Made by a program: the position numbers and the translations under genes. Source: Fimbriimonadales bacterium (lineage in GTDB: Bacteria > Armatimonadota > Fimbriimonadia > Fimbriimonadales > JABRVX01). From it: a stretch of DNA of 64,000 bases. The notes beneath the pieces were generated by a model. That model did not search any database. It was not told where the DNA came from and saw only the letters and a program-made list of their open reading frames with translations. The DNA lies in the NCBI GenBank assembly GCA_045862955.1, contig BTVI01000003.1:40762-104761 (forward strand), given 5' to 3'. Shown piece after piece: positions 97-46,563 of the stretch (the first letter of the stretch is position 1; each line of letters starts with the position of its first letter).

Positions 97-127
97 AGTG
101 CTGTTGGGCTAGTGCGTGGAAACCGAG

Positions 128-1336
128 ATGCGAACGCATGTGATGAAGCCTTATACGATAGCTGCCGCCGCATACGTCCTGGCGGGCGTAGGGGGTGTCG
201 GAGCGGTGTTACTGCACGTTGGCGAACCTCGGCAGTACTCGGAACCCGTCTTCTACTATGCTCCCGACTGCCCCGGCTGTGGTGACGTGCTGCCCTCTAT
301 AAAGCAGTTGGCAGGCTTGCGTTACGTGGATATCTCGCAGGCAGACGGATACGAGCGGGCTGTCGCGGCGCAAGGCAGCCCCGAGGTCGAGGTTCCATAT
401 CTGCAACTCGTCGTAGCCGGCTCACTCCGTACTGCGGTGGGCTCGGACGAGGTCTCGGCTCTAGCCCATGCGGTCACTGCTACCGACCGCGAACGAGAGA
501 CCTCGTTCAAGGTGGCTGTTGGGCTGCTTGGAATAGTCCTGCTTGCCGGCGCCGCGTCCTGGGCTTGGCTGGGCGAGCTGGCCCCTCCTGCGGGCGTTCT
601 TCTCTCGCTTCTGGCGGCGATGAGGCCGTGCACGGCATGCGCGTCGGGGGATCGCCTGCTGAGTGCGGCAGCCTCGGTTCTGGGCGTGGCCGTCTTCCTT
701 TGCATCATGGTGGCAGCCCGAGCGCAGGCGCCGCCGAGACACGTGGCGGCCTGGCTGTGCGTAGCCGGAGCCATAGTACAGGCGGGCATGCTGGTAGTAG
801 CTCCGAAATTCTGTGTTCCGTGCCTCGGGGTAGGCCTATGCTTCCTGCTCGGCGCCAAGATGCTGCCCAACCTGCCCGTGCCTACCGTGTCGCATCCCCA
901 GAGGTCTCGCGCATGGACAGTCTTCGCCGGGGCGGCACTAGGGTGCAGCGTTGCACTGCAGGCCGCCTCATCGTCGTACTGGCCCGTTCCCAGCGGAGGT
1001 CGCCCCATCGCTGAGTATCGGGGCAAAGAGGCATCGGAGCTTGTCGGCATGCTCCCCGAGGGAGCGCCCCGGCTCGTGGTGCTGGTGGTGGCGGGGTGCG
1101 AGGCATGCCAACGTGCGGTGGGGGCGCTCACGAGGGGCGGGGTGCCCTTCATTGCAGTGCAGAGATGCAGCGAAGCTGCCGGTCCACCCTGCTTCGCCGA
1201 TGCAGCGCTAGACACCGCATACCCCACCTTTCTGGTGCTGGACGAGAGCGGGCGGATCGAGAGGATTTCGGCGGGATGGCCTTCGGGTGCAACCGCCGAT
1301 GAAGCCGTCGAGTATTACAGGAGGTGTACGCAGTGA
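128..1336 (+). CDS. Polytopic membrane thiol-disulfide oxidoreductase with two thioredoxin-fold domains (TRX-CPGC / ~6 TM with CTAC and CVPC / TRX-CEAC)
   Basis: ORF 116..1336, with ATG at 128; GTG 116 and ATG 143 are alternative starts. It has an N-terminal TM helix, a thioredoxin-like segment with CPGC, further hydrophobic helices carrying CTAC and FCVPC, and a C-terminal thioredoxin-like segment with GCEAC. Stop TGA 1334-1336 overlaps the GTG start of the next gene. Confidence 0.7.
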   Translation: MRTHVMKPYTIAAAAYVLAGVGGVGAVLLHVGEPRQYSEPVFYYAPDCPGCGDVLPSIKQLAGLRYVDISQADGYERAVAAQGSPEVEVPYLQLVVAGSLRTAVGSDEVSALAHAVTATDRERETSFKVAVGLLGIVLLAGAASWAWLGELAPPAGVLLSLLAAMRPCTACASGDRLLSAAASVLGVAVFLCIMVAARAQAPPRHVAAWLCVAGAIVQAGMLVVAPKFCVPCLGVGLCFLLGAKMLPNLPVPTVSHPQRSRAWTVFAGAALGCSVALQAASSSYWPVPSGGRPIAEYRGKEASELVGMLPEGAPRLVVLVVAGCEACQRAVGALTRGGVPFIAVQRCSEAAGPPCFADAALDTAYPTFLVLDESGRIERISAGWPSGATADEAVEYYRRCTQ

Positions 1337-1412
1337 AGCTCGACACGTTGCTGAGGAAATCCTGGCGCGGCGCCGTTGCCGTGCTTGGCGTGACGATGAT
1401 TCTGGGGCTGAT
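1078..1412 (+). repeat. High-identity duplicated block, copy 1 (3' end of the oxidoreductase gene plus the leader of the Cys-rich gene); partner at 3118-3452
   Basis: Aligned by eye at offset +2040. I count about nine mismatches over ~335 nt. Similarity ends abruptly at 1412/3452. Confidence 0.9.
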
Positions 1413-1731
1413 CCAGATGCCCGGCAGCGGGCAGGTGCCGCCACCCATAGACCCCGATGACTGCAAGCCGAGCGTTCAATCAGACACGGGGTGCAAGGAC
1501 TTCCAGTATATGTGCAGCCTACTAGGCTGGAACTGGCAGATCATCGTAGAATGCCACAGGTGGTGTTGCTATCGCGATGGATACCTATACGCGACGATCT
1601 GGGAAGTACCCTCGGCGTGTGACTGTACGCAGAACCGGACCGAGTGCTGTTCGATCTTCTTCCCGAGAAACTGCATGGAGACTGCACAGCACATGCAGAG
1701 CACGAAGCCATGCCCGCAGGTTGAGCGCTGA
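1333..1731 (+). CDS. Secreted or signal-anchored cysteine-rich protein, variant 1 (12 Cys in ~100 aa mature region)
   Basis: In-frame GTG 1333 lies 8 nt after AGGAGG (1319-1324), with a GTGA overlap on the upstream stop. The leader is basic then hydrophobic (KLDTLLRKSWRGAVAVLGVTMILGLI). The Cys framework is C-9-C-6-C-12-C-3-CC-16-C-1-C-6-CC-7-C-12-C. A paralogue lies at 3373..3762. Confidence 0.75.
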   Translation: MKLDTLLRKSWRGAVAVLGVTMILGLIQMPGSGQVPPPIDPDDCKPSVQSDTGCKDFQYMCSLLGWNWQIIVECHRWCCYRDGYLYATIWEVPSACDCTQNRTECCSIFFPRNCMETAQHMQSTKPCPQVER

Positions 1732-1911
1732 GGTTCTATGAGGAGTGACCAAGGCCGGGTACCCGGACGTGCTCGTCGCTCTCCGTTCGGGCGGTACTGC
1801 TGGGCGATCGTGCAGGGGAAAATGCGCGTGGCCCGCGGTGTCGGACGCCACTCTCCCCCGCGCGGGGCCGAGAGGTCGTTGTCGGTTATCACGTAGGAGG
1901 GGAAATCGGAC

Positions 1912-2322
1912 ATGAGCGGACTGGCGGATGAGATTCGATCGTGGCGTCCAATATACCAGTGCGTGGCGCTAGGGGCGGCCGCAGGATTCACGTTCGGCGT
2001 CTTCGCCATGGTAGGCTACTACGTCCTCGGGGAATTCAGAGGTGAGCCGACGCAGACTGTCGCTATCAGCACCCTACTCTGTGCACTTGTCATAGCGCCT
2101 TGCGAGTCTCGGTGGGGCAGAGCCGGCTTGATCTGGGCGAACGCAGCCCTAGCCGTAGTCTGGATCGCGTTCTACTTGGTGGCTGCAGCCTACACCGGCC
2201 GCGTGTTCGTCGTCGGAGGTCTACGCGGCACTATCGTGGTGCTAACCGTGCTGCCCCTGCTAGCGGCGGGCAGTAGTGTGCTGTACGTACGGTTTCGGCA
2301 TAGTCTGATGGTTGGTCGCTAA
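1912..2322 (+). CDS. Small 4-TM membrane protein (family type 1)
   Basis: ATG 1912 follows a gtaggagggg RBS. The 136-aa product has four hydrophobic helices. Paralogues lie at 3911..4327 (diverged) and 4353..4744 (degraded). Confidence 0.7.
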   Translation: MSGLADEIRSWRPIYQCVALGAAAGFTFGVFAMVGYYVLGEFRGEPTQTVAISTLLCALVIAPCESRWGRAGLIWANAALAVVWIAFYLVAAAYTGRVFVVGGLRGTIVVLTVLPLLAAGSSVLYVRFRHSLMVGR

Positions 2323-2332
2323 GAGGTGTTGT

Positions 2333-3061
2333 ATGCTCAGGCGTGGTGTGGGACTAACGCTCGTGGAGCTACTCGTGGTCACCGCAGTGATCGCCGCGCT
2401 CGCTGCGATTCTGTATCCGGTAGTCACAGTCGCACGGAAACGTGGGCAGAGCGCTCAGATCGTGAGTAACATGCGACAGCTCGCACAAGCGGTTAATGTA
2501 TATATGGATGACTACTGCCTGCGTTTGCCACCCTTAGATCCCAGGCCTCTACTGAAGAACCCGGCGGTCAGAGCCATCGCCTACTACCCACACAAGATGG
2601 CGACGCGGTCGGAGATGGACAGCGCACCGAGAGAAGAAGTTCCATTCCTCGGAGACTACGTGTACTGCCGGGAGGTGATCGGGCCGTCCGTTGGCTACGT
2701 GGTGTTTGATCACTGGCCAGACTTCTGGCGCGACCCCGACGCTGTGTGGAACCACTACTGGACGGGCGTTCCGGCTTCCCCTGTCATCCTGGTATCCCTG
2801 CACGACGCGGGCTTTCACATGCTACCCCGCCAGAAGCCGCTGTGGGCGGTCTTCGACACCAAGTATGATGATCCGCCGCCGCCACCGTGGCTTCGTTTTC
2901 CCCCTAGGGTGCTGCGCTGTCGGCTGGACACTTCGGTGCGCACGTACCGTATCTTGAGGCACATGCAGACGAACATGGTCTTCTCCTATCTGCCGCTCTG
3001 TAGGAACAGGTTTGTCTGCTGTAGGACGTGTGAGGAGGCTGGTCAATACTGTTCGGAATAG
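2333..3061 (+). CDS. Prepilin-type N-terminal cleavage/methylation domain protein with Cys-rich C-terminal tail (pseudopilin, variant 1)
   Basis: ATG 2333 follows GAGGTG. The N-terminus G/LTLVELLVVTAVIAALAAILYPV is a class III signal with Glu at +5. The C-terminal tail is CRNRFVCCRTCEEAGQYC. There is no H-X9-DG motif. Confidence 0.8.
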   Translation: MLRRGVGLTLVELLVVTAVIAALAAILYPVVTVARKRGQSAQIVSNMRQLAQAVNVYMDDYCLRLPPLDPRPLLKNPAVRAIAYYPHKMATRSEMDSAPREEVPFLGDYVYCREVIGPSVGYVVFDHWPDFWRDPDAVWNHYWTGVPASPVILVSLHDAGFHMLPRQKPLWAVFDTKYDDPPPPPWLRFPPRVLRCRLDTSVRTYRILRHMQTNMVFSYLPLCRNRFVCCRTCEEAGQYCSE

Positions 3062-3115
3062 CCTCCGACGACGTCGGGGCGAAGCCCCCCTGTCTGCTCG
3101 GTAGCGCCAGGCGAC

Positions 3116-3376
3116 TTGGTGCTGGTGATGGCGGGGTGCGAGGCGTGCGAGCGTGCGGTGGGGGCGCTCACGAGGGGCGGGGTGCCCTTCATTGCAGTGC
3201 GGAGATGCAGCGAAGCTGCCGGTCCACCCTGCTTCGCCGATGCAGCGCTAGACACGGCATACCCCACCTTTCTGGTGCTGGACGAGAGCGGGCGGATGGA
3301 GAGGATTTCGGCGGGATGGCCTTCGGGTGCAACCGCCGATGAAGCCGTCGAGTATTACAGGAGGTGTACGCAGTGA
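3116..3376 (+). pseudogene. 3' fragment of an oxidoreductase paralogue (C-terminal thioredoxin-fold domain only); may still be translated as an ~82-86 aa CxxC mini-protein
   Basis: It matches codons ~322-406 of the 128..1336 gene almost exactly and keeps GCEAC. No upstream TM or TRX1 portion is present. In-frame TTG 3116 and ATG 3128 exist. Its stop overlaps the next gene's GTG, as in copy 1. Confidence 0.6.
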
Positions 3377-3452
3377 AGCTCGACACGTTGCTGAGGAAAT
3401 CCTGGCGCGGCGCCGTTGCCGTACTTGGCGTGACGATGATTCTGGGGCTGAT
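3118..3452 (+). repeat. High-identity duplicated block, copy 2; partner at 1078-1412
   Basis: Same alignment as above. Confidence 0.9.
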
Positions 3453-3762
3453 ACCGGTGCACACGTTGGGACAGGGAACGCCCCCGCCGCCGATGCAGTG
3501 CACGACCACTTCCCATGGGATGTTCGGCTGCAAGGACTACCCTGGTTCATGCTCAACCTCAGAGACTAACTGGGACATTATCGTCGCTTGCGATCGCAAG
3601 TGCTGTTATGTCGAAGGACAACTCTACTCCGAGACGTGGACTCTTTCGTCTAACTGCTGGTGCGTTCAGCTGCAGGGCTGCTGCGATTATAATCGCAATT
3701 GCACACAGACGGCGGACATGATCAAGGACAGGTGGCCCTGCCCGCGATACCAGCAGCAGTAG
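3373..3762 (+). CDS. Secreted or signal-anchored cysteine-rich protein, variant 2 (12 Cys)
   Basis: Same RBS, GTG start and leader as variant 1, with one nucleotide difference in the leader. The mature region is highly diverged but keeps the framework C-9-C-6-C-12-C-3-CC-16-C-1-C-5-CC-5-C-12-C. Confidence 0.75.
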   Translation: MKLDTLLRKSWRGAVAVLGVTMILGLIPVHTLGQGTPPPPMQCTTTSHGMFGCKDYPGSCSTSETNWDIIVACDRKCCYVEGQLYSETWTLSSNCWCVQLQGCCDYNRNCTQTADMIKDRWPCPRYQQQ

Positions 3763-3910
3763 GAGCTTAGCAGCATGAGGCTTGAGAACGGCGGGCACAC
3801 CGCGAGTGGCTACGCGCAGGGCCTCAGGTCACACCCTCCCAGGGAGGAATTGGCGCGTGAGGAACCAGCCCCGCTTGTCGTGTTGGCGAACTTCTGAAAG
3901 AGGAATCTAA

Positions 3911-4327
3911 GTGGACGTTAGGTATCGCGGCATTTGGGACGAGGTGAGGGCATGGCCTGCATGGGTCCGTGTTCCGGCTGTCGGTGCCGCTGCCGGCGCT
4001 TCCTTTGGGGTGTTTGCATCGGTGGGGTACTATTTGGTTGGGCAGTACCGTGGTAGGCCATGGGAGATCGCCATCATCGCTGCTTTGTGGGGCGCTGCAG
4101 TTGTCGCTCCTCTGCACAACAGGTACGGCCGCGCAGCAATAGCATATGCCACCTTGCTAGCAGCAACCTTGTGGCTGCCGTTCTCTGTGTACACGGGCCA
4201 GCTTACCGCGGAGCACATGGCCACCGAGCTCTTCTATACTATTCTGTACGTCACGACATTGCCGCTCCTATCCGTCGGCACGTCGACGGTCTATACACTG
4301 ATGGAGCGGGCAATGCGTGGGCACTAG
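3911..4327 (+). CDS. Small 4-TM membrane protein (family type 2, diverged paralogue)
   Basis: GTG 3911 follows AGAGGA. The 138-aa product has the same helix layout as the 1912 gene, including the shared ...GVFA.VGYY.(V/L)G(E/Q)(F/Y)RG... segment, but low overall identity. Confidence 0.7.
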   Translation: MDVRYRGIWDEVRAWPAWVRVPAVGAAAGASFGVFASVGYYLVGQYRGRPWEIAIIAALWGAAVVAPLHNRYGRAAIAYATLLAATLWLPFSVYTGQLTAEHMATELFYTILYVTTLPLLSVGTSTVYTLMERAMRGH

Positions 4328-4352
4328 CGGTACATCCGACGAGGAGCGCTAA

Positions 4353-4744
4353 TTGGGGACGGGCGGACTAGCGGATGAGATTCGATCGTGGCGTCCAATA
4401 TACCAGTGCATGGCGCTAGGAACGGCCGCAGGATTCGCCTTCGGCGTCTTCGCCACGGCAGGCTACTACGTACTCGGGCAATTCAGAGGTGAGCCGATGC
4501 AGACTGTCGCTATCAGCACCCTACTCTGTGCACTTGTCGTAGGGCCTTGCGAGTTTCGGTGGGGCACAGCCGGCTTGATCTGGGCGAACGCAGCCCTAGC
4601 CCTAGTCTGGATCGGGTTCTACTTGGTGGCTGCAGCGGAGGTCCACTCGGCACTATCGTGCTGCTAACCGCGCTGCCCCTGCTAGCGGCGGGCAGTAGCG
4701 TGCTGTACGTTCTGTTTCGGCATCGTCCGATGGTCGGTCGCTAG
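4353..4744 (+). pseudogene. Degraded copy of the type 1 4-TM gene (start codon and RBS lost, 25-nt deletion causing a frameshift)
   Basis: ORFs 4353..4667 and 4547..4744 together reproduce the 1912..2322 protein. The segment ctacaccggccgcgtgttcgtcgtc, present near 2195 in copy 1, is absent near 4637. The ATG context acatgagcgg is replaced by acgggcgg. Confidence 0.7.
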
Positions 4745-4754
4745 GAGGTGTCGT

Positions 4755-5489
4755 ATGCTTAGGCGTGTCGTCGCACTGACGCTGATAGAGCTACTCGTGG
4801 TCATTGCAGTGATCGCCGCGCTCGCTGCGATTCTGTACCCTGTCATCTCGGGAGCGCGGAAACGTGGGCAGAACGCTCAGATCGTGAGTAACATGCGGCA
4901 GCTCGCACAAGCGGTCAATGTCTACATGGAGGACAACCACCTGCGTCTTCCGCCCTTCGACCCTAGGCCGCTGCTGAAGAACCCGGCGGTCAGAGCCATC
5001 GCCTACTACCCGCACAAGATGGCAACGCGGTCGGAGATGGACAGTGCACCCAGAGAAGAGGTTCCATTCCTCGGAGACTATGTGTACTGCCGGCAGGTGG
5101 TCGGAGTCTCTGCAAACTACTTCGTGGTTGAGCGCTGGCCCGACGTCATTTGGCGCGACCCCGACGCCGTGTGGCGCAACTACTGGACAGACATTTCGGC
5201 GTCACCTGTCATCCTGGTATCCCTGCACGACGCGGGCTTTCAGATGCTGCCCCGCCAGCAGCCGCTCGGGGACTCCGTCCCGGACACTGAACACGACAAG
5301 CCGGTCAGACCACCGCCGGTGAACTTCCCGCCGAGGGTCCTTAGGTGTAGGCTGGACACTTCGGTGCGGACGTATCGAATCGTGGAGCACATGCAAACGA
5401 ACATGGGATTCTCGTATATCCCGTTGTGTATGAACAAGTATGCCTGCTGCAAGCACTGCCAAGAGGCGGGCCAGGACTGCTCCGAATAG
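4755..5489 (+). CDS. Prepilin-type N-terminal cleavage/methylation domain protein with Cys-rich C-terminal tail (pseudopilin, variant 2)
   Basis: ATG 4755 follows AGGAGGTG. The N-terminus is [23 protein letters not shown]. The C-terminal tail is CMNKYACCKHCQEAGQDC. Confidence 0.8.
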   Translation: MLRRVVALTLIELLVVIAVIAALAAILYPVISGARKRGQNAQIVSNMRQLAQAVNVYMEDNHLRLPPFDPRPLLKNPAVRAIAYYPHKMATRSEMDSAPREEVPFLGDYVYCRQVVGVSANYFVVERWPDVIWRDPDAVWRNYWTDISASPVILVSLHDAGFQMLPRQQPLGDSVPDTEHDKPVRPPPVNFPPRVLRCRLDTSVRTYRIVEHMQTNMGFSYIPLCMNKYACCKHCQEAGQDCSE

Positions 5490-5501
5490 CGGTAGACGAC
5501 A

Positions 5502-7703
5502 TCAGGGCGACGGTGCGGTTGCCTGCTCGGTAGAACCCGGCGACTTGTAGGAAGGCAGCGGGATGCGCCATGCGCCGCGCCCGTGCGTGGCAGCCGTCAG
5601 GTAGCCGGTGCGCCGGTTGAGCGATAGGCTCTCGACCGGAGTGTGCGGGATGCCCTTGCCGAAGCGCTTCCACTGCCCTCCCCCGGTGTTCGACACGAAC
5701 ACGCCGCAATCCAGCGCCACGTAGATGTCGTCCGGTCGGGTAGGGTCAATGGCGATGTGACGCACGGGAGCATCCGGAAGGTTGTCATCTACCGAGCGCC
5801 AGGAACCACCCGCGTTTTCCGTGAGGAACACGTGCTTGTTACCGAACCCGGCCAGCCCGACGATCACCCTACGCGGCGAGCGAGGGTCTACGGCGACCCA
5901 AGTGATCCACTGCGCGGGCAGTCCCGCCGAGATGTCGTACCACTGTTCACCCGTGTTAGGAGTGACCCACATCCGCCCCCACCGGTTGCCGCAGTAGATC
6001 ACCTCGGACTTGCCATAGGCGATACCAATCGCGGATATGGGGCCGATGTCACCGCTGATAACCTTCCACGTGTCGCCCCCATCGGTGGTGCGCGACGCGC
6101 GGAGGGCCCCCGCAACCAGGATGTCCGGGTCGTTCGGGTCCATGGCATAGGGTGCATAGAACAGCGCGCCCGTGCGGTCGATCCTATCGGCGATGGACTG
6201 CCAGCTCTCGCCCCCGTCGTCCGACTGATACATGGCAAGCCCTACGTAGGTGGAATAGGCCCGCTTGGGGTTCTTATAGTTGAAGAGACTGATGCCACCG
6301 TCTCCCTGCACCGATATCCGCCACACGGGGTTGCCGCGGTACTTGAGTGTGCCGTTATCCTGTGTGCCACCAATGGCATCGTATGGGTCCCACGGGTGCG
6401 TGTCTATGGTTTCGAATTGGATGTTGGCCAGGCCGGTGTTGATGGCACGCCAGGTGTCGCCTCGGTCATAGGTGACGAACATGCCGCCATCGGTGGCGCC
6501 ATAGAGCACCTTCGGGTCGTGTGGGTCGAAGGCGTACCCGTGCCAGTCGGGATGAACGCCCCACTGGAAGGACCGTGCTGCGTCGATCCAAGTCTCGCCG
6601 CCATCCAAGCTGCGGAAGCAGCTGGAGCCCGCCGCATACACCACCTTCGGATCGTCCGGCCCGCATGCGAGGAAGTTATCGTACCAGCTGCCGTAGTTCG
6701 GTGCGTTGGGGAGGTGCACCCACGTTCGGCCGCCATCGTCTGTTCGGTACATGACGATGCCCGCATCGGTGACATAGGAGACGTACACGGTGTTGGGCAC
6801 GTCGCGGCACTGGGCGAGTTGAGTGCGACCGAAGGTGCCTGGCGCGCGCAGTCCTCCCTCGAGCATCTCCCACGTGTTCCCCGAGTCATTCGTCTTGAAT
6901 ACACCTTCTTTGGGTGGGGTCCCACCACAGGCGTAGAAGGTATCCGGCTGCTTGGGGCTGTTGACGACGTCGCGGAAGTAGCCCTCGAGCAGTCGCGTCC
7001 AGGTGTTGCCTCCATCGAGAGAGCGAAAGAGACCGCGCGATGTGGCGGCCAGCAGCAACCCCGGGATCTTGGGGCTCGCGGTCAGCTTGGCCCAATACGC
7101 GCCCGCGAACTGCTCTTCGGCCAGCAGCTCCCATGTGCGGCCCGCATCCATTGAGCGCAAGAGCCCCGCACCGAAGTAGCTGTCTCCGGAGCCGTGCGCC
7201 TCACCAGTGCCCGCGTAGATGATGTCCGGGTTGAATGGGTCGAGAATGAGCGAGCCGAAAGAGAGAGACGCCTCGAAGTCCGAGAGCGGCTCCCAACTCG
7301 CACCCCGGTTGGTGCTCTTGAACACTCCGCCGTGCGATGCGCCGATGTAGATGCGGTTGGTGTTGCGCGGGTCCACCGCGATGCTACTGACACGCCCCGC
7401 ACACTCGTACCCGCCCCATCCATCGCGGAGTTTGCTGGGACCGATGAACTCCCACGCGGGCACGTTGCCCTTGGCATCCGTCCAGTAAGGCAACTGGAGA
7501 GCGGCCAGCCAGGCCGAACGCCGCGCCTGCCACGCGGGCGCCTGGGGCGAGACGCGGAGCTGGTCGAAGTACTCCTCACGCTGCTCGAGTAGCTTGGCAT
7601 ACTGAGAGACGAGCTGTACGGGCGGGCGGTCTTGCGCGTCCTTCGGTGGGCCTATTTGTACGAGAAAGGCGGCGAGCACGACCAGCGATGCAACGAACCC
7701 CAT
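5502..7703 (-). CDS. Secreted BNR/Asp-box repeat protein, tandem beta-propeller type (GH74 / sortilin-VPS10 / Ycf48-like)
   Basis: The 733-aa product has at least 10 S-x-D-x-G-x-(T/S)-W motifs, including SMDAGRTW, SLDGGNTW, TDDGGRTW, SDDGGESW and TTDGGDTW. It has an N-terminal hydrophobic signal. Confidence 0.8.
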   Translation of the reverse strand: MGFVASLVVLAAFLVQIGPPKDAQDRPPVQLVSQYAKLLEQREEYFDQLRVSPQAPAWQARRSAWLAALQLPYWTDAKGNVPAWEFIGPSKLRDGWGGYECAGRVSSIAVDPRNTNRIYIGASHGGVFKSTNRGASWEPLSDFEASLSFGSLILDPFNPDIIYAGTGEAHGSGDSYFGAGLLRSMDAGRTWELLAEEQFAGAYWAKLTASPKIPGLLLAATSRGLFRSLDGGNTWTRLLEGYFRDVVNSPKQPDTFYACGGTPPKEGVFKTNDSGNTWEMLEGGLRAPGTFGRTQLAQCRDVPNTVYVSYVTDAGIVMYRTDDGGRTWVHLPNAPNYGSWYDNFLACGPDDPKVVYAAGSSCFRSLDGGETWIDAARSFQWGVHPDWHGYAFDPHDPKVLYGATDGGMFVTYDRGDTWRAINTGLANIQFETIDTHPWDPYDAIGGTQDNGTLKYRGNPVWRISVQGDGGISLFNYKNPKRAYSTYVGLAMYQSDDGGESWQSIADRIDRTGALFYAPYAMDPNDPDILVAGALRASRTTDGGDTWKVISGDIGPISAIGIAYGKSEVIYCGNRWGRMWVTPNTGEQWYDISAGLPAQWITWVAVDPRSPRRVIVGLAGFGNKHVFLTENAGGSWRSVDDNLPDAPVRHIAIDPTRPDDIYVALDCGVFVSNTGGGQWKRFGKGIPHTPVESLSLNRRTGYLTAATHGRGAWRIPLPSYKSPGSTEQATAPSP

Positions 7704-15175: not shown

Positions 15176-15386
15176 CTGTGCGAGGGTGCAGCCGTGCGGG
15201 GCCGTCATGCTGAGCCTGTCGAAGCATGCCCTCGCCATCCGCATGGTAGTGCCCGTCATGCTGAGCCTGTCGAAGCATGCTGCCTCCAGACGCGCAGGTA
15301 GTAGCAGTAGAAGATCACGGGCGGCAATCGCCGTCATGCTTCGACAGGCTCAGCATGACGGCCCCGCACGGCTGCACCCTCGCACT
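15176..15386. repeat. Composite REP/MITE-like element: ~51-nt inverted arms (15176-15229 and 15333-15386) enclosing a third core copy
   Basis: Core GTCATGCTGAGCCTGTCGAAGCATG occurs at 15204(+), 15255(+) and 15333(-). The flanking gtgcgagggtgcagccgtgcggggc is matched by its exact reverse complement at 15361-15385. Confidence 0.85.
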
Positions 15387-15649
15387 GTCCCATCCTCTGC
15401 GGGTGTTGAGGGAAGCTCCTTTGGATAAGGGCGACCCGGAACCGACCACCGGTCGGGGACGAGGGCGGCTCAACCACGCTGTCCACGACTCTCGTCCCGA
15501 CGACTCCGCATCCGTCCGCCAGAACTGGGATGCCGACCCTTCCGAGGCCGCTTCGCTTCGGGGGAAGGGGGGGCCGCGCGATTCCGCCTCGACGGCACGT
15601 GGGGTGATACGTTGGCGCCTGCCACTTACTCCCACCCCACCGACCCCTT

Positions 15650-15818
15650 ATACCGTCATGCTGAGCCTGTCGAAGCATGCCCTCGCTATCCGCATGGTAG
15701 TATCCGGAGCCCGTCATGCTGAGCCTGTCGAAGCATGCTGCCTCCAGACGCGCAGGTAGTAGCAGTAGAAGATCACGTGCGGCTATCGCCGTCATGCTTC
15801 GACAGGCTCAGCATGACG
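15650..15818. repeat. Second copy of the ~160-bp composite REP unit (matches 15204-15361)
   Basis: Cores occur at 15655(+), 15713(+) and 15791(-). The sequence is near-identical to 15204-15361. Confidence 0.85.
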
Positions 15819-15977
15819 GCGTGGGACGCTGCTGCTCACGCGTGGGATGCTGCTGCTCGCTAGGCGTGGGACGCCGCTGCTCACGCGTGGGATGCTGCTG
15901 CTCGCTAGGCGTGGGACGCTGCTGCTCACGCGTGGGATGCTGCTGCTCGCTAGGAGTGGGATGCTGCTGCTCACTAG
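15819..15977. repeat. Tandem repeat, 45-nt unit x 3.5 (each unit is two ~21-24-nt half repeats, gcgtggga[c/t]gctgctgctc..)
   Basis: Units lie at 15819-15863, 15864-15908 and 15909-15953, with a partial unit at 15954-15977. The array starts immediately after the REP terminus ...GCTCAGCATGACG. Confidence 0.9.
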
Positions 15978-16064: not shown

Positions 16065-16784
16065 CTATCGCTTCTTCCGCCACCAGACGTAGCAGTTGTC
16101 GGCGTGGAGTTGATCGCGCGTCATCACCTTCGCATGGCCGTCCACGAAGGCTACCATTGCGGACTTCTTGCCGCCGTGTCGGTACTTCACAATGCCGTAG
16201 TCGGCCGTGAAGATGCGGGTGCCGAGCGTCGTGTCCATGCACTTGTATGCTTCCGGCTCTGCGATCCAGTCACCGTCTCCGTTCTCCGTCACTATGATCG
16301 TCTCGCTCGGCACTTCCACACCGTTCACACGGGCGGTCTTGTGATCCTGGTAGTCGGCGACGTTGGGGTTGACGTTGGTGAACACATCTATGTACGCCCA
16401 GTTGTTGATGCCGTACTGCCCCAGAAACTTCACCTGCGGATTGGCGTAGTAGTCGCGGCAATCCCACCCTTTGCCCTCGAAGCTAGGACAGCTGTAGAGC
16501 TCGTCCGCCTTCTGATACGGCTTGGTGATCTGCTTCCACGAGGCGTTGTCGGCGCACCAAGGTCGGTCCCACAGCCAGGTGATAGGCAGCACGTCGTCGT
16601 GGTCGCCGTAGTACATTGCGATGGCCATGCCCACCTGGCGCATCTGCTGTCCGCACACGACTTGCTTACCGTGCTCGCGAGCCCGCGAGAATACGGGCAA
16701 AAGGATGGCGGCGAGCACCGCGATGATAGCGATGACCACCAGAAGCTCGATCAGCGTGAAGGCGCTGAGCCTCGATCGATTCAT
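16065..16784 (-). CDS. Prepilin-type N-terminal cleavage/methylation domain protein (H-X9-DG-like family)
   Basis: The N-terminus is [24 protein letters not shown]. The C-terminus is ...RHGGKKSAMVAFVDGHAKVM. Confidence 0.85.
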   Translation of the reverse strand: MNRSRLSAFTLIELLVVIAIIAVLAAILLPVFSRAREHGKQVVCGQQMRQVGMAIAMYYGDHDDVLPITWLWDRPWCADNASWKQITKPYQKADELYSCPSFEGKGWDCRDYYANPQVKFLGQYGINNWAYIDVFTNVNPNVADYQDHKTARVNGVEVPSETIIVTENGDGDWIAEPEAYKCMDTTLGTRIFTADYGIVKYRHGGKKSAMVAFVDGHAKVMTRDQLHADNCYVWWRKKR

Positions 16785-26675: not shown

Positions 26676-26847
26676 AGTTCCCCGCTTCGTGACGTAGGTT
26701 AGGTCGGGGCGGTCCTCCGGGCCGCCCCCATCGCATCGCAGTAGGCTGTCGCTCGTAACTGCCGGATGGCAAGCGGTTGCTAAGTGCCTTTCCGAGCCTT
26801 CGCGGGTCCCCCGGCAGTGGCTGTCTTCCCGAGCTAGTCGCGGCTCC

Positions 26848-27437
26848 CATGCCTCGATGTTTGGGCTGCGGGTAGCGGCAGCCTTCCGCTCAAGACCATC
26901 CCCAGCAGCCGAACGTCGAGGCATCCAACTCGTCCATACCTCGGTGTTTCGGTTGCGGGTCGCGGCAACCTTCCGCTCAAGACCATCCCCAGCAGCCGAA
27001 CGTCGAGGCACAGACGGTGCGCGCCAACAGAAGCGCCGGCATGCGACCCCCACCCCAGCTTCGCAGACCCTCCCCCTTCCGCTTCGCTCCAAGGGGAGGG
27101 GTCGGGGCTCGCTACGGACCGTACCAGAGCACGCGCTGGCAAGCATCGCTGAACGCCAAGCGCTACCACCGGGGCTAGCCGATGCATTCGGTCCATGCCT
27201 CGATGTTTCGGTTGCGGGTCGCGGCAGCCTTCCGCTCAAGACCATCCCCAGCAGCCGAACGTCGAGGCACAGACGGTGCGCGCCAGCCGAAGGGCCGGCA
27301 TGCGACCCCCACCCCAGCTTCGCAGACCCTCCCCCTTCCGCTTCGCTCCAAGGGGAGGGGTCGGGGCTTCCCTGCCTCGATGTTTCGGCTGCGGGTAGCG
27401 GCCCCATGCCTCTGCTGCAGGAGCAGCGGAGGCATGG
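26848..27437. repeat. Composite array of a second hairpin-repeat family (~75-nt inverted-repeat units; a 172-bp unit is duplicated at 26935-27107 and 27194-27366)
   Basis: Unit: catgcctcgatgtttcggytgcgggt...ccagcagccgaacgtcgaggca, with self-complementary ends. It is followed by the hairpin ccctcccccttcc...ggaaggggaggg. A partial fourth unit lies at 27367-27437. Confidence 0.85.
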
Positions 27438-31360: not shown

Positions 31361-31429
31361 GGGGGCTCCTTCCTGCCAGGCGCGGCCACATGTGTCATGC
31401 CGAGTGCGGTGCAGACGAGCCACGGAGTA

Positions 31430-31534
31430 CGTCATGCTGAGCTTGTCGAAGCATGACGCCGAGAGCCGCATGGTAACAACTAGAGATGCAATGGTAGCGG
31501 CATCCGCCGTCATGCTTCGACAAGCTCAGCATGA
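31430..31534. repeat. REP/MITE-like hairpin element (inverted core pair 31430-31456 / 31508-31534)
   Basis: It has the same core as 15204 (GTCATGCTGAGCtTGTCGAAGCATGAC) and its reverse complement, separated by ~50 nt that contain ccgcatggta. Confidence 0.85.
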
Positions 31535-31596
31535 CGTGCCTGATCCTGCGCATGACGTGCCTGATCCTGCGCATGACGTGCCTAATCCTGCGCATG
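31529..31596. repeat. Tandem repeat, 21-nt unit (catgacgtgcctgatcctgcg) x 3 plus a partial unit
   Basis: Units lie at 31529-31549, 31550-31570 and 31571-31591. The first unit overlaps the REP terminus. Confidence 0.9.
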
Positions 31597-34768: not shown

Positions 34769-34852
34769 TCCGTGGCGATGGCAGAACTACTCATGCTACA
34801 CCCAACCGATTGCTCTGTCATTGCCTTCAAATCCAGGTCCGGCGGCCAAAGC

Positions 34853-34957
34853 GTCATGCTGAGCCTGTCGAAGCATGATCCCGTTAGCCGCACGCTATCG
34901 AGTTAGGATGCTACCATCGCGGTACCTGACCGCATGCTTCGATGGGCTCAGCATGAC
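34853..34957. repeat. REP/MITE-like hairpin element (inverted core pair 34853-34878 / 34933-34957)
   Basis: Same core family as the elements above. Confidence 0.85.
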
Positions 34958-34999
34958 GGGTCCTCGGCTATATCGAACGCGCAACCGATCAACGCAGCT

Positions 35000-42163: not shown

Positions 42164-42237
42164 TGGCTGGCGGGGGAGGATTCGAACCTCCACAAGCAGA
42201 ACCAAAATCTGCTGTCCTGCCCTTAGACGACCCGCCA
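42164..42237 (-). tRNA. tRNA-Gln (anticodon UUG), CCA encoded
   Basis: The reverse complement folds as a cloverleaf. The acceptor is TGGCGGG/CCCGCCA (U1-A72, as in bacterial tRNA-Gln). The anticodon stem is GCAGA/TCTGC with loop TTTTGGT. The T-arm is GGAGGTTCGAATCCTCC. Length is 74 nt. Confidence 0.9.
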
Positions 42238-44490: not shown

Positions 44491-45378
44491 CTACTGAGTT
44501 ATATCCCACTTGTACGCGTCAATGTCCGTGATCGGACCCGCGTAGTTCGCGACCACATTCGGCACGCCCGCCGCGATCTGCTGGATGGTCATGGACTTGG
44601 CATGTCCGTCCACGAACACCGTGGTGCACTTATCGGTGTGCCACGGCCAGCAGCCACCGAAAACATCCCAGGCATTCGGAAGCTCTGGGTGCCAACCCGT
44701 GTATGGGTAGTAATTGTTGCCCGGTAGCGGCCAGGTGTCCACGCGCGTTCCGTCCGGCTTTACCCACGTACGGGCAGGCGGAATGGCGATCCAGTTGCCG
44801 CCACCGAACGGCTTGCCGCTGGCATCTCTGTTCCACACCGTGTCGATGTGGAGGAACGTGTTGGCGGTCGAAGCGATGCGCCCTTCCTTCGTCGGAACGG
44901 AGCCCCAACCTGACGAAGTGGAATACACCGGGCTCAGATAATATGAGTTCATCCCGACGTTAGTGCGCAGCGACCACTCGTAGTTGCGTTCCCAGCGGTT
45001 GGCCGGTGGCGGGCATTCGCCTTCGTTGCCGTGCTGGGTTAGCTCCTTGTCGTTGGCAGTCGGGTCAGACGGGCAGCGAAAGACTGTCCACTCCTTCACG
45101 TAGCCCTGAAGGGACGTTACCCAGACTTGGTCTCTGTAGTCGTACGAACACCCCGCCCATGCTGCGGTGTGATTGGTGAGGACGAACTTGCCGTTATTGT
45201 CACCGCGATACTGCGCTTGGGCAATCGCGACCTGCTTGTAGTTCGAGATGCACTGCGAGACCTTGGCGGCTTTGCGAGCCTGTGAGAATACAGGGAATAG
45301 GATTGCAGCAAGAATCGCGATAATTGCGATGACAACCAGCAGCTCGATAAGCGTGAAACCGGTCCTTTTCATGATCAT
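44491..45378 (-). CDS. Prepilin-type N-terminal cleavage/methylation domain protein, H-X9-DG family
   Basis: The N-terminus is [24 protein letters not shown]. The C-terminus [18 protein letters not shown] fits H-X9-DG exactly. Confidence 0.9.
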
Positions 45379-45660: not shown

Positions 45661-46563
45661 CTAATCCTGCAAGTCCCAAATGTACGCGGACTGGTCGCTG
45701 ATCAACCCGTCCCAGTTCTGAAGGCGAGAACACCCCGCAGTGAGTTCATCTGGCATCAAGCGCCGAACGTGGCCGTCGGCGAATACGACCGTGAACCCGC
45801 CGTTGTGCCAGTTCCACGCACCACCATAATAGTTGCTCGACTTCGGATCCGACTCCCATCCCTTCGGGGCCATTCGCCAATAGTATTCGTTCTGCCAGAC
45901 GACCCGTGGGAAAGTGTCCCGATTCACTGCGTTGGCAGCCAGATATCGGCAAGGAGGAACCACGACCCACTGACCCCCGCCGAATGGGCGACCTAGATGA
46001 TCCCGGCCCCACACGCTGTCCACGAAAACGAGCGTCCTCGCAGGGCTGGCGATGCTAGAAAAGCGGTTGGGAAACGCCATCCAGCCAAGCGTCACATCTC
46101 GCACGAGGGGTGAGAGGTACATGAAGTTGAACCCCAAGTTCGTTCGCAAGGACCGAACGTAAAACTCGCCCCAGTCGTCGTCAGGCGCCGCATCCACGTC
46201 GTCCCAACGCCCGACGCGAGCCGGTGTTGCACGTCCAGTGTCACCGGGGCATTCGAACACGTCTACCGACCTGGTGTACGGGTAGAGAACCTGGACCCAC
46301 GTTCGGTCGTCGGGGTCGACTCTCTCGGGGATGTAAGCGTGGTAATTGGTGGGCGGGAACCGATCGCTGTACTCGTCCATGTACATCCGCAGAGCCTTCA
46401 GCACAGCGCTGAAGTTCTCGGCGCACGAGGCACGGATCGCAGCACCGCGCGCAGCGCTCATGACAGGAAACAGCAGCGCCGCGAGGATGGCTATCACCGC
46501 CACGACGACGAGAAGCTCCACCAGCGAGAAGGCCTGCCGATGCCTCAGGTTATCGCCTCCCAC
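45661..46563 (-). CDS. Prepilin-type N-terminal cleavage/methylation domain protein, H-X9-DG family
   Basis: The N-terminus is FSLVELLVVVAVIAILAALLFPV. The C-terminus WHNGGFTVVFADGHVRRL fits H-X9-DG. Confidence 0.9.
   Translation of the reverse strand: MGGDNLRHRQAFSLVELLVVVAVIAILAALLFPVMSAARGAAIRASCAENFSAVLKALRMYMDEYSDRFPPTNYHAYIPERVDPDDRTWVQVLYPYTRSVDVFECPGDTGRATPARVGRWDDVDAAPDDDWGEFYVRSLRTNLGFNFMYLSPLVRDVTLGWMAFPNRFSSIASPARTLVFVDSVWGRDHLGRPFGGGQWVVVPPCRYLAANAVNRDTFPRVVWQNEYYWRMAPKGWESDPKSSNYYGGAWNWHNGGFTVVFADGHVRRLMPDELTAGCSRLQNWDGLISDQSAYIWDLQD

Follow-up and report, generated by a model that had tools for sequence, protein, structure and literature searches.

Conotoxin and defensin superfamilies combine a conserved signal sequence with a divergent mature region in which the cysteine framework is invariant. 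Orphan modules of contact-dependent growth inhibition (CDI) loci (cdiA-CT/cdiI) and of Rhs loci have been displaced together with an upstream conserved fragment that can be used as recombination homology, and the conversion of pilin cassettes is a conceptual relative of core exchange. Dedicated disulfide machinery for a single cysteine-rich substrate is represented by MauD/MauE, which serve the six-disulfide light subunit of methylamine dehydrogenase, and by DsbL/DsbI. In the lpl cluster of Staphylococcus aureus, recombination at conserved segments shuffles the variable parts, and the inherited unit spans adjacent open reading frames (ORFs) (PMC2568036). The present analysis concerns a 64,000-nt stretch (the window) of contig BTVI01000003.1, assembly GCA_045862955.1, from the metagenome-assembled genome (MAG) AMXMBFR61 of a member of the Fimbriimonadales (Armatimonadota), and within it a locus with two genes, B1 and B2, for small proteins with 12 cysteines. 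A preliminary description had noted that a near-identical block runs into both genes and then ends abruptly, and had likened this to the conserved leaders and hypervariable cores of conotoxins, defensin-like peptides and bacteriocin precursors. We consider the best explanation to be another one, namely that the locus is probably a recombination mosaic of a duplicated operon with the module A-B-C-D, in which the identity cliff would mark a crossover point.

The duplicated operon and the identity cliff

The locus reads, from left to right, as the head of A; the tail of A with B1, C1, D1 and 56 nt; the tail of a truncated copy, A', with B2, X, C2 (a probable pseudogene) and D2; and a BNR gene. 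Its features are as follows, L001 (L) being a contig of a sister lineage that was used as comparator.

116-1336, plus strand: gene A, an ORF of 406 residues
1078-1412, plus strand: copy 1 of the near-identical tract, from pairwise alignment (last 86 codons of A, Shine-Dalgarno (SD) sequence, GTGA overlap and first 27 codons of B1)
1333-1731, plus strand: B1, 132 residues with 12 Cys, identical to P0001
1912-2322, plus strand: C1, 136 residues, a small hydrophobic multi-pass membrane protein
2333-3061, plus strand: D1, a type IV pilin- or pseudopilin-like protein
3062-3117, no strand assigned: duplication junction, a remnant of about 56 nt homologous to 5490-5547, from three-way alignment
3118-3376, plus strand: A' remnant, the truncated 3' end of A, from tblastn and alignment
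3118-3452, plus strand: copy 2 of the tract, with 8/335 mismatches against copy 1
3373-3762, plus strand: B2, 129 residues with the second 12-Cys core, identical to P0007
3453-4453, plus strand: exchanged cassette, 97.8% identical to L001, comprising the core of B2, 148 nt of intergenic DNA, X and the beginning of C2 (~33 codons)
3911-4327, plus strand: X, 138 residues, a small membrane protein and paralogue of C
4353-4744, plus strand: C2, a C1 copy disrupted near 4636 by the loss of 25 nt
4755-5489, plus strand: D2, a pilin-like protein, mosaic
5502-7703, minus strand: BNR/sortilin-like gene

Repeat and three-way alignment resolved two collinear units, 1078-3117 (W1) and 3118-5547 (W2), with a novel head-to-tail join. 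At this join, 3116/3117, DNA from downstream of D meets the middle of A across a microhomology of about 2 nt (TG), and patchy CCCGGC...TG similarity is present there. The 56 nt 3' of D1 are homologous to the 56 nt 3' of D2, where the minus-strand BNR gene has its 3' end, and the two stretches (3062-3117 and 5490-5547) share only about 68% identity; a repeat family (D7) likewise matches 2882-3082 with 5310-5510. A duplicated 56-nt remnant joined to mid-A through a 2-nt microhomology is the signature of a head-to-tail segmental duplication. The locus thus represents an operon module that has undergone tandem segmental duplication, the unit extending from about codon 321 of A to just beyond D.

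The two copies of the tract lie at a fixed offset of 2040 nt and differ at 8 of 335 positions (1088, 1105, 1109, 1111, 1161, 1216, 1258 and 1383; 97.6% identity), close to the nine or so counted in the preliminary description. The tract comprises the last 86 codons of A, an AGGAGG at 1319-1324, the GTGA overlap (1333-1336) and 27 codons from the start of B, which encode the n- and h-regions of the signal peptide; three quarters of it (255 nt) is therefore the 3' end of the upstream gene A. To the left of 1077 similarity between W1 and W2 is absent. From 1413 onwards mismatches are dense, and identity in a 50-nt sliding window falls from 0.96-1.00 to 0.56 within one window. Single-breakpoint max-chi-square analysis, with 1000 permutations as in all breakpoint estimates here, placed the break at 1413 (chi2 = 163; 0/1000 permutations reach this value), with 8 mismatches in the first 333 columns as against 136 in the next 304. 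The collapse of identity at 1412/3452 is thus as abrupt as had been described.

Synonymous divergence (dS, as Nei-Gojobori codon estimates throughout) between the two units was 0.047 for the A-tail and 0.094 for the B leader. Selection on translational coupling or on the signal peptide was considered as the cause of the conservation of the tract and was rejected, since the synonymous sites are conserved too and A' is a truncated remnant. Further downstream the units are less uniform than the value of about 80% that had been given for the C/D block as a whole: this held for D1 and D2 (~80-87%, with patches near 55%), but not for C1 and C2, which are about 92-96% identical at the nucleotide level (91-96% over the core of C). 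C1 and C2 have a dS of 0.075, and D1 and D2 one of 0.63. With dS at 0.05-0.09, the A-tail with leader and the C genes appear to have undergone homogenisation in this genome, whether through gene conversion from unit to unit or as the youngest surviving part of the duplication.

The two cores beyond the cliff are of another kind. The spacing of the 12 cysteines, C-9-C-6-C-12-C-3-CC-16-C-1-C-6/5-CC-7/5-C-12-C, is exact for both B1 and B2, so that the framework previously called invariant is indeed so. The remainder has diverged, with 40/101 aligned residues identical (28/89 when Cys are excluded), a proportion of synonymous differences (pS) of 0.72, which is saturated, a nonsynonymous proportion (pN) of 0.45 and a nonsynonymous divergence (dN) of 0.69. 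The dN/dS comparison that had been proposed as a check gave a ratio of about 0.28 and no nonsynonymous excess, the ratio being uninformative in itself as dS is saturated. With synonymous sites saturated and dN/dS at about 0.28, the B1 and B2 cores read as ancient alleles or paralogues and not as fast-evolving sequences.

Two further ORFs were noted in the spacers. Between B2 and X lies a 40-codon ORF, 3775-3897 (L002:9492-9614; MRLENGGHTASGYAQGLRSHPPR...), which is gene-called in several related assemblies; it has few between-lineage differences, mostly nonsynonymous, and may be no real gene. The B1-C1 spacer holds an unrelated 52-codon ORF, 1738-1896. Searches of the region found no Rfam family at the duplicated locus, no similarity to phage records and no sigma-70-like promoter, and terminator-like matches showed no convincing excess over the shuffled expectation.

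Exchange of a cassette with a sister lineage

The single-unit order A-B2-X-C-D-BNR was found in all six related contigs, L001-L003, reached via P0002, the sister-lineage ortholog of B2, and L012-L014, reached via a truncated variant, P0008. In the A-tail and leader, about 30 differences from L001 were common to both window copies (A-tail dS 0.32-0.35 against L001), and the 8 differences between the copies split 4:4 in their agreement with L001. The paralogues are closer to each other than to L001, and the proposal that the 97% block is a recombination or gene-conversion tract was borne out.

Unit 2 is identical to L001 at 966/988 positions between 3453 and 4440 (97.8%), including 143/148 of the intergenic region, while the flanks of this cassette are only ~80-88% identical. 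The B2 core differs from that of L001 by 4 nonsynonymous and 2 synonymous changes (98% identity; dS 0.032), and X by a single residue (dS 0.009), against a background between the window and L001 of 0.72 for the BNR gene and 1.19 for the head of A. D1 stands at this background (dS 0.72 against the D of L001), whereas D2 has a dS of 0.33 and is a patchwork in which some patches are 97-100% identical to the D of L001 and others 70-87%.

The boundaries of the cassette are sharp. On the left, the last unit-2 site in the window-specific state is 3441 and L001-type sites begin at 3453, which places the left crossover of the B2-X exchange, as read from these diagnostic sites, within the 12 nt 3441-3453, in the c-region of the signal peptide; this crossover would be the cliff itself. 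On the right, a breakpoint was located at 4454, inside C (chi2 436; 0/1000 permutations). It corresponds to a second cliff within C (window 4440-4744 against L001:11068-11423), where the first ~33 codons, a BLAST-aligned stretch of ~100 nt, are ~91% identical to L001, the core of C in L001 is only ~45% identical at the nucleotide level to C1 and C2, and similarity returns at the start of D. Since dS within the cassette is 0.01-0.03 against a background of 0.7-1.2, since its breakpoints are sharp and since non-coding DNA is included, 3453-4453 appears to have been exchanged very recently with a sister Fimbriimonadia lineage.

Three ages would therefore meet at 1413/3453, those of the homogenised tract, of the imported-like cassette of unit 2 and of the ancient B1 allele. 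Young homogenised sequence is joined there to an old divergent allele, and the cliff thus has the appearance of a crossover point and not of accelerated evolution of a mature peptide.

The A-B-C-D operon and its proteins

Gene A encodes a polytopic membrane protein in which CxxC occurs four times (CPGC at 52, CTAC at 172, CVPC at 233 and CEAC at 328), arranged as a transmembrane (TM) core, with two membrane CxxC pairs, between two soluble, putatively thioredoxin/glutaredoxin-like domains. All four motifs are kept in the A-like genes of four other loci (five loci with the window), and the A-like proteins share a conserved Pro downstream of the C-terminal CxxC, at the position that the cis-Pro loop would have in a thioredoxin fold, and an extra C-terminal Cys pair. 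Matches to the Pfam families Glutaredoxin and Thioredoxin_2 were below gathering (E 0.02-0.09; E = 0.09 for A of the window), and an A profile gave weak matches to PDB sequences (E 0.13-3), 14/16 of which have the thioredoxin fold. No Pfam match of A to MauE/DoxX, DsbB, VKOR or Me-amine-dh_L was found. A search for full-length homologues of A returned 8000 word candidates of which none scored, probably because it was swamped by hydrophobic words. The label of a putative dedicated thiol-disulfide oxidoreductase, unproven as it is, is reasonable for A on its motifs. A' consists of 86 codons that cover the C-terminal thioredoxin-like domain only, without the membrane part; it is 92-94% identical to residues 317-406 of A by tblastn and retains the SD sequence and the stop/start overlap for B2.

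The true start of B1 is the GTG at 1333, which overlaps the TGA of A as GTGA and agrees with the NCBI gene call P0001. The B leaders are of Sec type, with K/R in the n-region and a hydrophobic h-region. No double-glycine leader of the bacteriocin type was present in B, and Pfam and NCBIfam scans found no ABC/C39 peptidase exporter gene in the operon at any locus examined. The same collections held no family for B, and no toxin, immunity, type VI secretion system (T6SS) or CDI family or delivery domain was detected with them. An AlphaFold2 model of B1 from a 7-sequence alignment has four long strands and a C-terminal helix, with a predicted local distance difference test score (pLDDT) of 75 overall and of 75-94 over residues 40-132; a 3-sequence run was too poor (pLDDT 54). 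On this model, B may be a secreted or anchored disulfide-rich protein of beta-sheet-plus-helix type.

The B family is extremely rare. Six clusters were found among ~15 billion predicted proteins: a word-indexed search of 5.8 billion clusters returned B1 and B2 only, three remote relatives came from HMMER, run exhaustively on 1.84 billion representatives, and a further one from a profile search. The B1 core is the only known copy, its cluster having one member. All 12 Cys are kept across the six clusters, and in all six B directly follows an A-like gene where the flanks are visible. The stop of A overlaps the start of B in the window, L004, L007-L010 and L011, and a pilin-like gene and a small membrane-protein gene adjoin B at the family loci with visible flanks; the order is ABCD for the window and for L011, ABDC for L004 and for L007. 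The members of the four other clusters have unrelated, ordinary signal peptides with AXA-like sites, and the leader is thus not conserved family-wide. Neither the B profile nor a 26-nt DNA pattern from the A-tail gave a match in GTDB species genomes or in JGI metagenome contigs, collections evidently without these lineages. An extracytoplasmic function (ECF) sigma factor and a zf-HC2 anti-sigma factor are encoded as a pair near the operon in two distant lineages, upstream in L001 (7039-7883) and downstream in L007 (6267-7387); the pair may be a regulator of the operon or a coincidence.

C1 has three clear TM segments by hydropathy and a fourth possible one, and neither C nor X has a family in Pfam or NCBIfam. 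C2 is 86% identical to C1 over 91 residues, but lacks at 4629-4640 the 25 nt present in C1 at 2189-2213, which gives a frameshift and the loss of the last TM segment. Its dN/dS of about 0.9 against C1 fits a decaying pseudogene, and C2 is probably one. X shares 39% of its residues with C and is always linked to B2. D1 starts at the ATG at 2333, homologous to the start of D2, and carries a cleavage/methylation helix at its N terminus and a CC..C..C cluster at its C terminus. With 17.4 and 17.5 bits against TIGR02532 (cut-off 16.3), D1 and D2 have a prepilin-type N-terminal domain; residues 9-62 of D align with PilA/GspG in the PDB (E = 4e-6), and Pfam N_methyl recognises the D-like genes in both L007 and L011. 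Other genes of the window encode a D-like prepilin helix, at 16065-16784(-), 45199-45378(-) and 46345-46548(-), with 45-53% identity over ~60 residues. Many pilin-like proteins are encoded in the lineage, and none of those listed has the C-terminal domain of D.

Taken together, we infer that the operon may be a dedicated oxidative-folding and export module. A would most likely introduce or isomerise the six disulfides of B in the periplasm, and perhaps also act on the C-terminal Cys cluster of D, with translation of B coupled to that of A through the stop/start overlap. D, as a pseudopilin-like protein with C-terminal Cys, could present or export B, and C and X would be small membrane partners. 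Because the B2 core and X were transferred as one block, and B1 is followed by C1, X with B2 and C1 with B1 are probably cognate pairs, which could be of an immunity-like or of a receptor- or chaperone-like kind. The conserved flanks, A-tail with leader on one side and the 5' end of C on the other, could serve as homology arms for swaps of a core plus its partner between strains.

Elsewhere in the window, a repeat of ~112 nt has four copies (15251-15974, 31427-31538 and 34849-34960), of which two are in inverse orientation to 34852-34960, and alternating 21/24-nt tandem repeats with a 45-nt period lie at 15818-15974. Both stand in an apparently non-coding gap between outer-membrane-like and pilin-like genes, and they look like a dispersed intergenic repeat element. 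A 77-nt repeat, in three copies within ~520 nt (26847-27368), two of which continue to 178 nt with 97% identity, overlaps long ORFs on both strands. The only Rfam match in the window was a tRNA gene at 42167-42237(-).

Alternative histories and comparison with described systems

Diversification in the style of conotoxins and defensins would make B1 and B2 a recent duplicate whose core came under positive selection while purifying selection, or some special mechanism, preserved the leader. It would fit the abruptness of the boundary, which lies near the signal-peptide/mature junction, and the invariance of the Cys framework, and the 4 nonsynonymous against 2 synonymous changes in the B2 core relative to L001 can be counted in its favour; we nevertheless consider it very improbable. 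The dS pattern largely refutes diversifying selection on a recent duplicate: the saturated core, set against a tract at 0.05-0.09, indicates that the two differ in age and not only in constraint. The conserved block is not leader-specific, since it reaches 255 nt into A, and its unit-2 part is a remnant with no reason for conservation. The B2 core, for its part, keeps 98% identity between lineages that differ by a background dS of 0.7-1.2, and is thus not fast-evolving. Nor is there a repertoire of variant cores, as only two were found and every related assembly carries a single B2 core, an outcome which the preliminary description had itself named as weakening its interpretation. Its picture, in conotoxin, defensin or bacteriocin style, of a hypervariable core behind a conserved leader was thus not upheld. 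An artefact of assembly, in which a strain with A-B1-C1-D1 and a strain with A-B2-X-C-D were chimerically joined, also seems very unlikely. The source is a MAG, populations with a single B2 unit exist in other samples, and a near-identical block of 335 nt is the type of repeat at which assemblers switch strain; such a switch, however, gives replacement and not a tandem order. The array requires a join at 3116/3117 where only ~2 nt are shared, far below the k-mer of an assembler, the 56-nt remnant at ~68% identity to 5490-5547 leaves no duplicate read path, and C2 has its own 25-nt deletion.

A polymorphic toxin-immunity locus would be a sub-hypothesis compatible with the duplicated-operon mosaic, B being an exported disulfide-rich toxin or bacteriocin and C and X its cognate immunity proteins in the membrane. 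Orphan or extra modules for competition between strains would then be represented by unit 2 and by the divergent C of L001, and the A'-tail with leader would be the homology for swaps. The B2 core and X do move as one cassette, B always has a small membrane-protein gene beside it, the core of C has been replaced outright between lineages while its first ~100 nt are conserved, and a fragment of the upstream gene is kept at the head of unit 2. Against this, the conserved N-terminal part of B is a 27-residue signal peptide and no delivery domain, B1 and B2 have a fold in common and align end to end and so are not unrelated toxin domains, the family searches described above detected none of the expected toxin, immunity, exporter or T6SS/CDI families, and the repertoire of this very rare family amounts to two cores. 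In the sister lineage, B and A decay while X, C and D are intact, which fits the loss of a toxin with its immunity kept or plain dispensability. We therefore regard a toxin-immunity role as unlikely.

The duplicated-operon mosaic, which we prefer, also has points that weigh against it and against the function proposed with it. The tandem arrangement was seen on a single MAG contig. With three sequences, either order of duplication and import and either direction of conversion would fit: an old duplication with later conversions would account for the data, as would an L-like unit brought in through homology-facilitated illegitimate recombination and then subject to conversion. The suggestion that the tract could swap cores holds in the main, a core-bearing cassette having been exchanged with the leader as its left anchor. 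The mosaic in D is finer than any simple model predicts. The function has been inferred only, as none of A, B, C and X has a Pfam or NCBIfam family over threshold, and the model of B1 gave no significant match to PDB and BFVD structures. Lastly, the module appears from its lesions to be dispensable and decaying in the sister lineage. There A is split by two frameshifts (L001:8798-9798; also L002, L012, L013 and L014), one just after CTAC and the other where a C-run has lost 1 nt, ~25 nt upstream of the equivalent of the duplication boundary. Since the same split calls (178 + 163 residues) were obtained in five independent assemblies, the pseudogene is probably real. In L012 (at 10238), L013 and L014, B2 has in addition a 107-nt deletion (against L001:10238-10344) that leaves the 96-residue P0008, in a population 99.5-99.9% identical to L001 in which X, C and D are intact.

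The mechanism behind the cliff is textbook, consisting of tandem duplication, gene conversion and allelic cassette import; the recombination mosaic is well explained and no new mechanism is demonstrated. The example is an unusually clean one, in that one breakpoint parts three sequence ages and the exchanged unit crosses ORF boundaries. The operon is the more valuable by-product, being a rare but conserved four-gene module with a 12-Cys protein without known fold, an apparently dedicated, putative oxidoreductase of unusual architecture and a private pilin-like protein. A further proposal, which is unlikely, is that A-B-C-D is a previously undescribed rare export module, in which a six-disulfide effector would be folded by its own oxidoreductase and presented by a dedicated pseudopilin, with B2+X and B1+C1 as swappable specificity cassettes. 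If so, it would be a new kind of polymorphic effector-partner system (toxin-immunity or kin-recognition) in Armatimonadota, and such systems would extend to a new protein family and phylum; if the cassettes are not specificity modules, the locus remains a small uncharacterised oxidative-folding operon.

Among described systems, the conotoxin and defensin superfamilies differ from this locus in that here the synonymous sites of the core are saturated and those of the leader nearly unchanged, a pattern due to recombination, and in that there are two copies and the leader is not family-wide. MauD/MauE and DsbL/DsbI offer an analogy only, that of a membrane redox protein with a thioredoxin-like partner encoded beside a small six-disulfide periplasmic protein. 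No sequence relationship was seen with Pfam, A fuses two thioredoxin-like domains to a TM core with two CxxC, and the present operon includes pilin-like and small membrane-protein genes. With type IV filament prepilins (TIGR02532; GspG/PilA), D shares the N-terminal helix only, its globular part and Cys cluster having no known relative. Orphan CDI and Rhs modules resemble the locus in their retained upstream fragment and in a variable part followed by a small partner gene. Unlike them, it has no large delivery protein and no VENN or PxxxxDPxGL demarcation, its variable parts are homologous, and the retained fragment comes from a different gene, A, and not from the variable protein.

The closest documented precedent is the tandem paralogue cluster lpl of S. 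aureus (Tsuru & Kobayashi 2008, PMC2568036). Both are tandem paralogues of secreted proteins in which the co-inherited unit spans the 3' part of one ORF, the intergenic stretch and the 5' portion of the next. At the present locus the B core, the intergenic region, X and the 5' end of C were exchanged as one unit, and the anchor is the 3' end of A with the 5' end of B. In contrast to lpl, the locus comprises two units and no large array, its anchor lies across the boundary of two unrelated genes and not in the middle of a paralogue, the protein families are unrelated, and import between lineages is documented in addition to intragenomic events.

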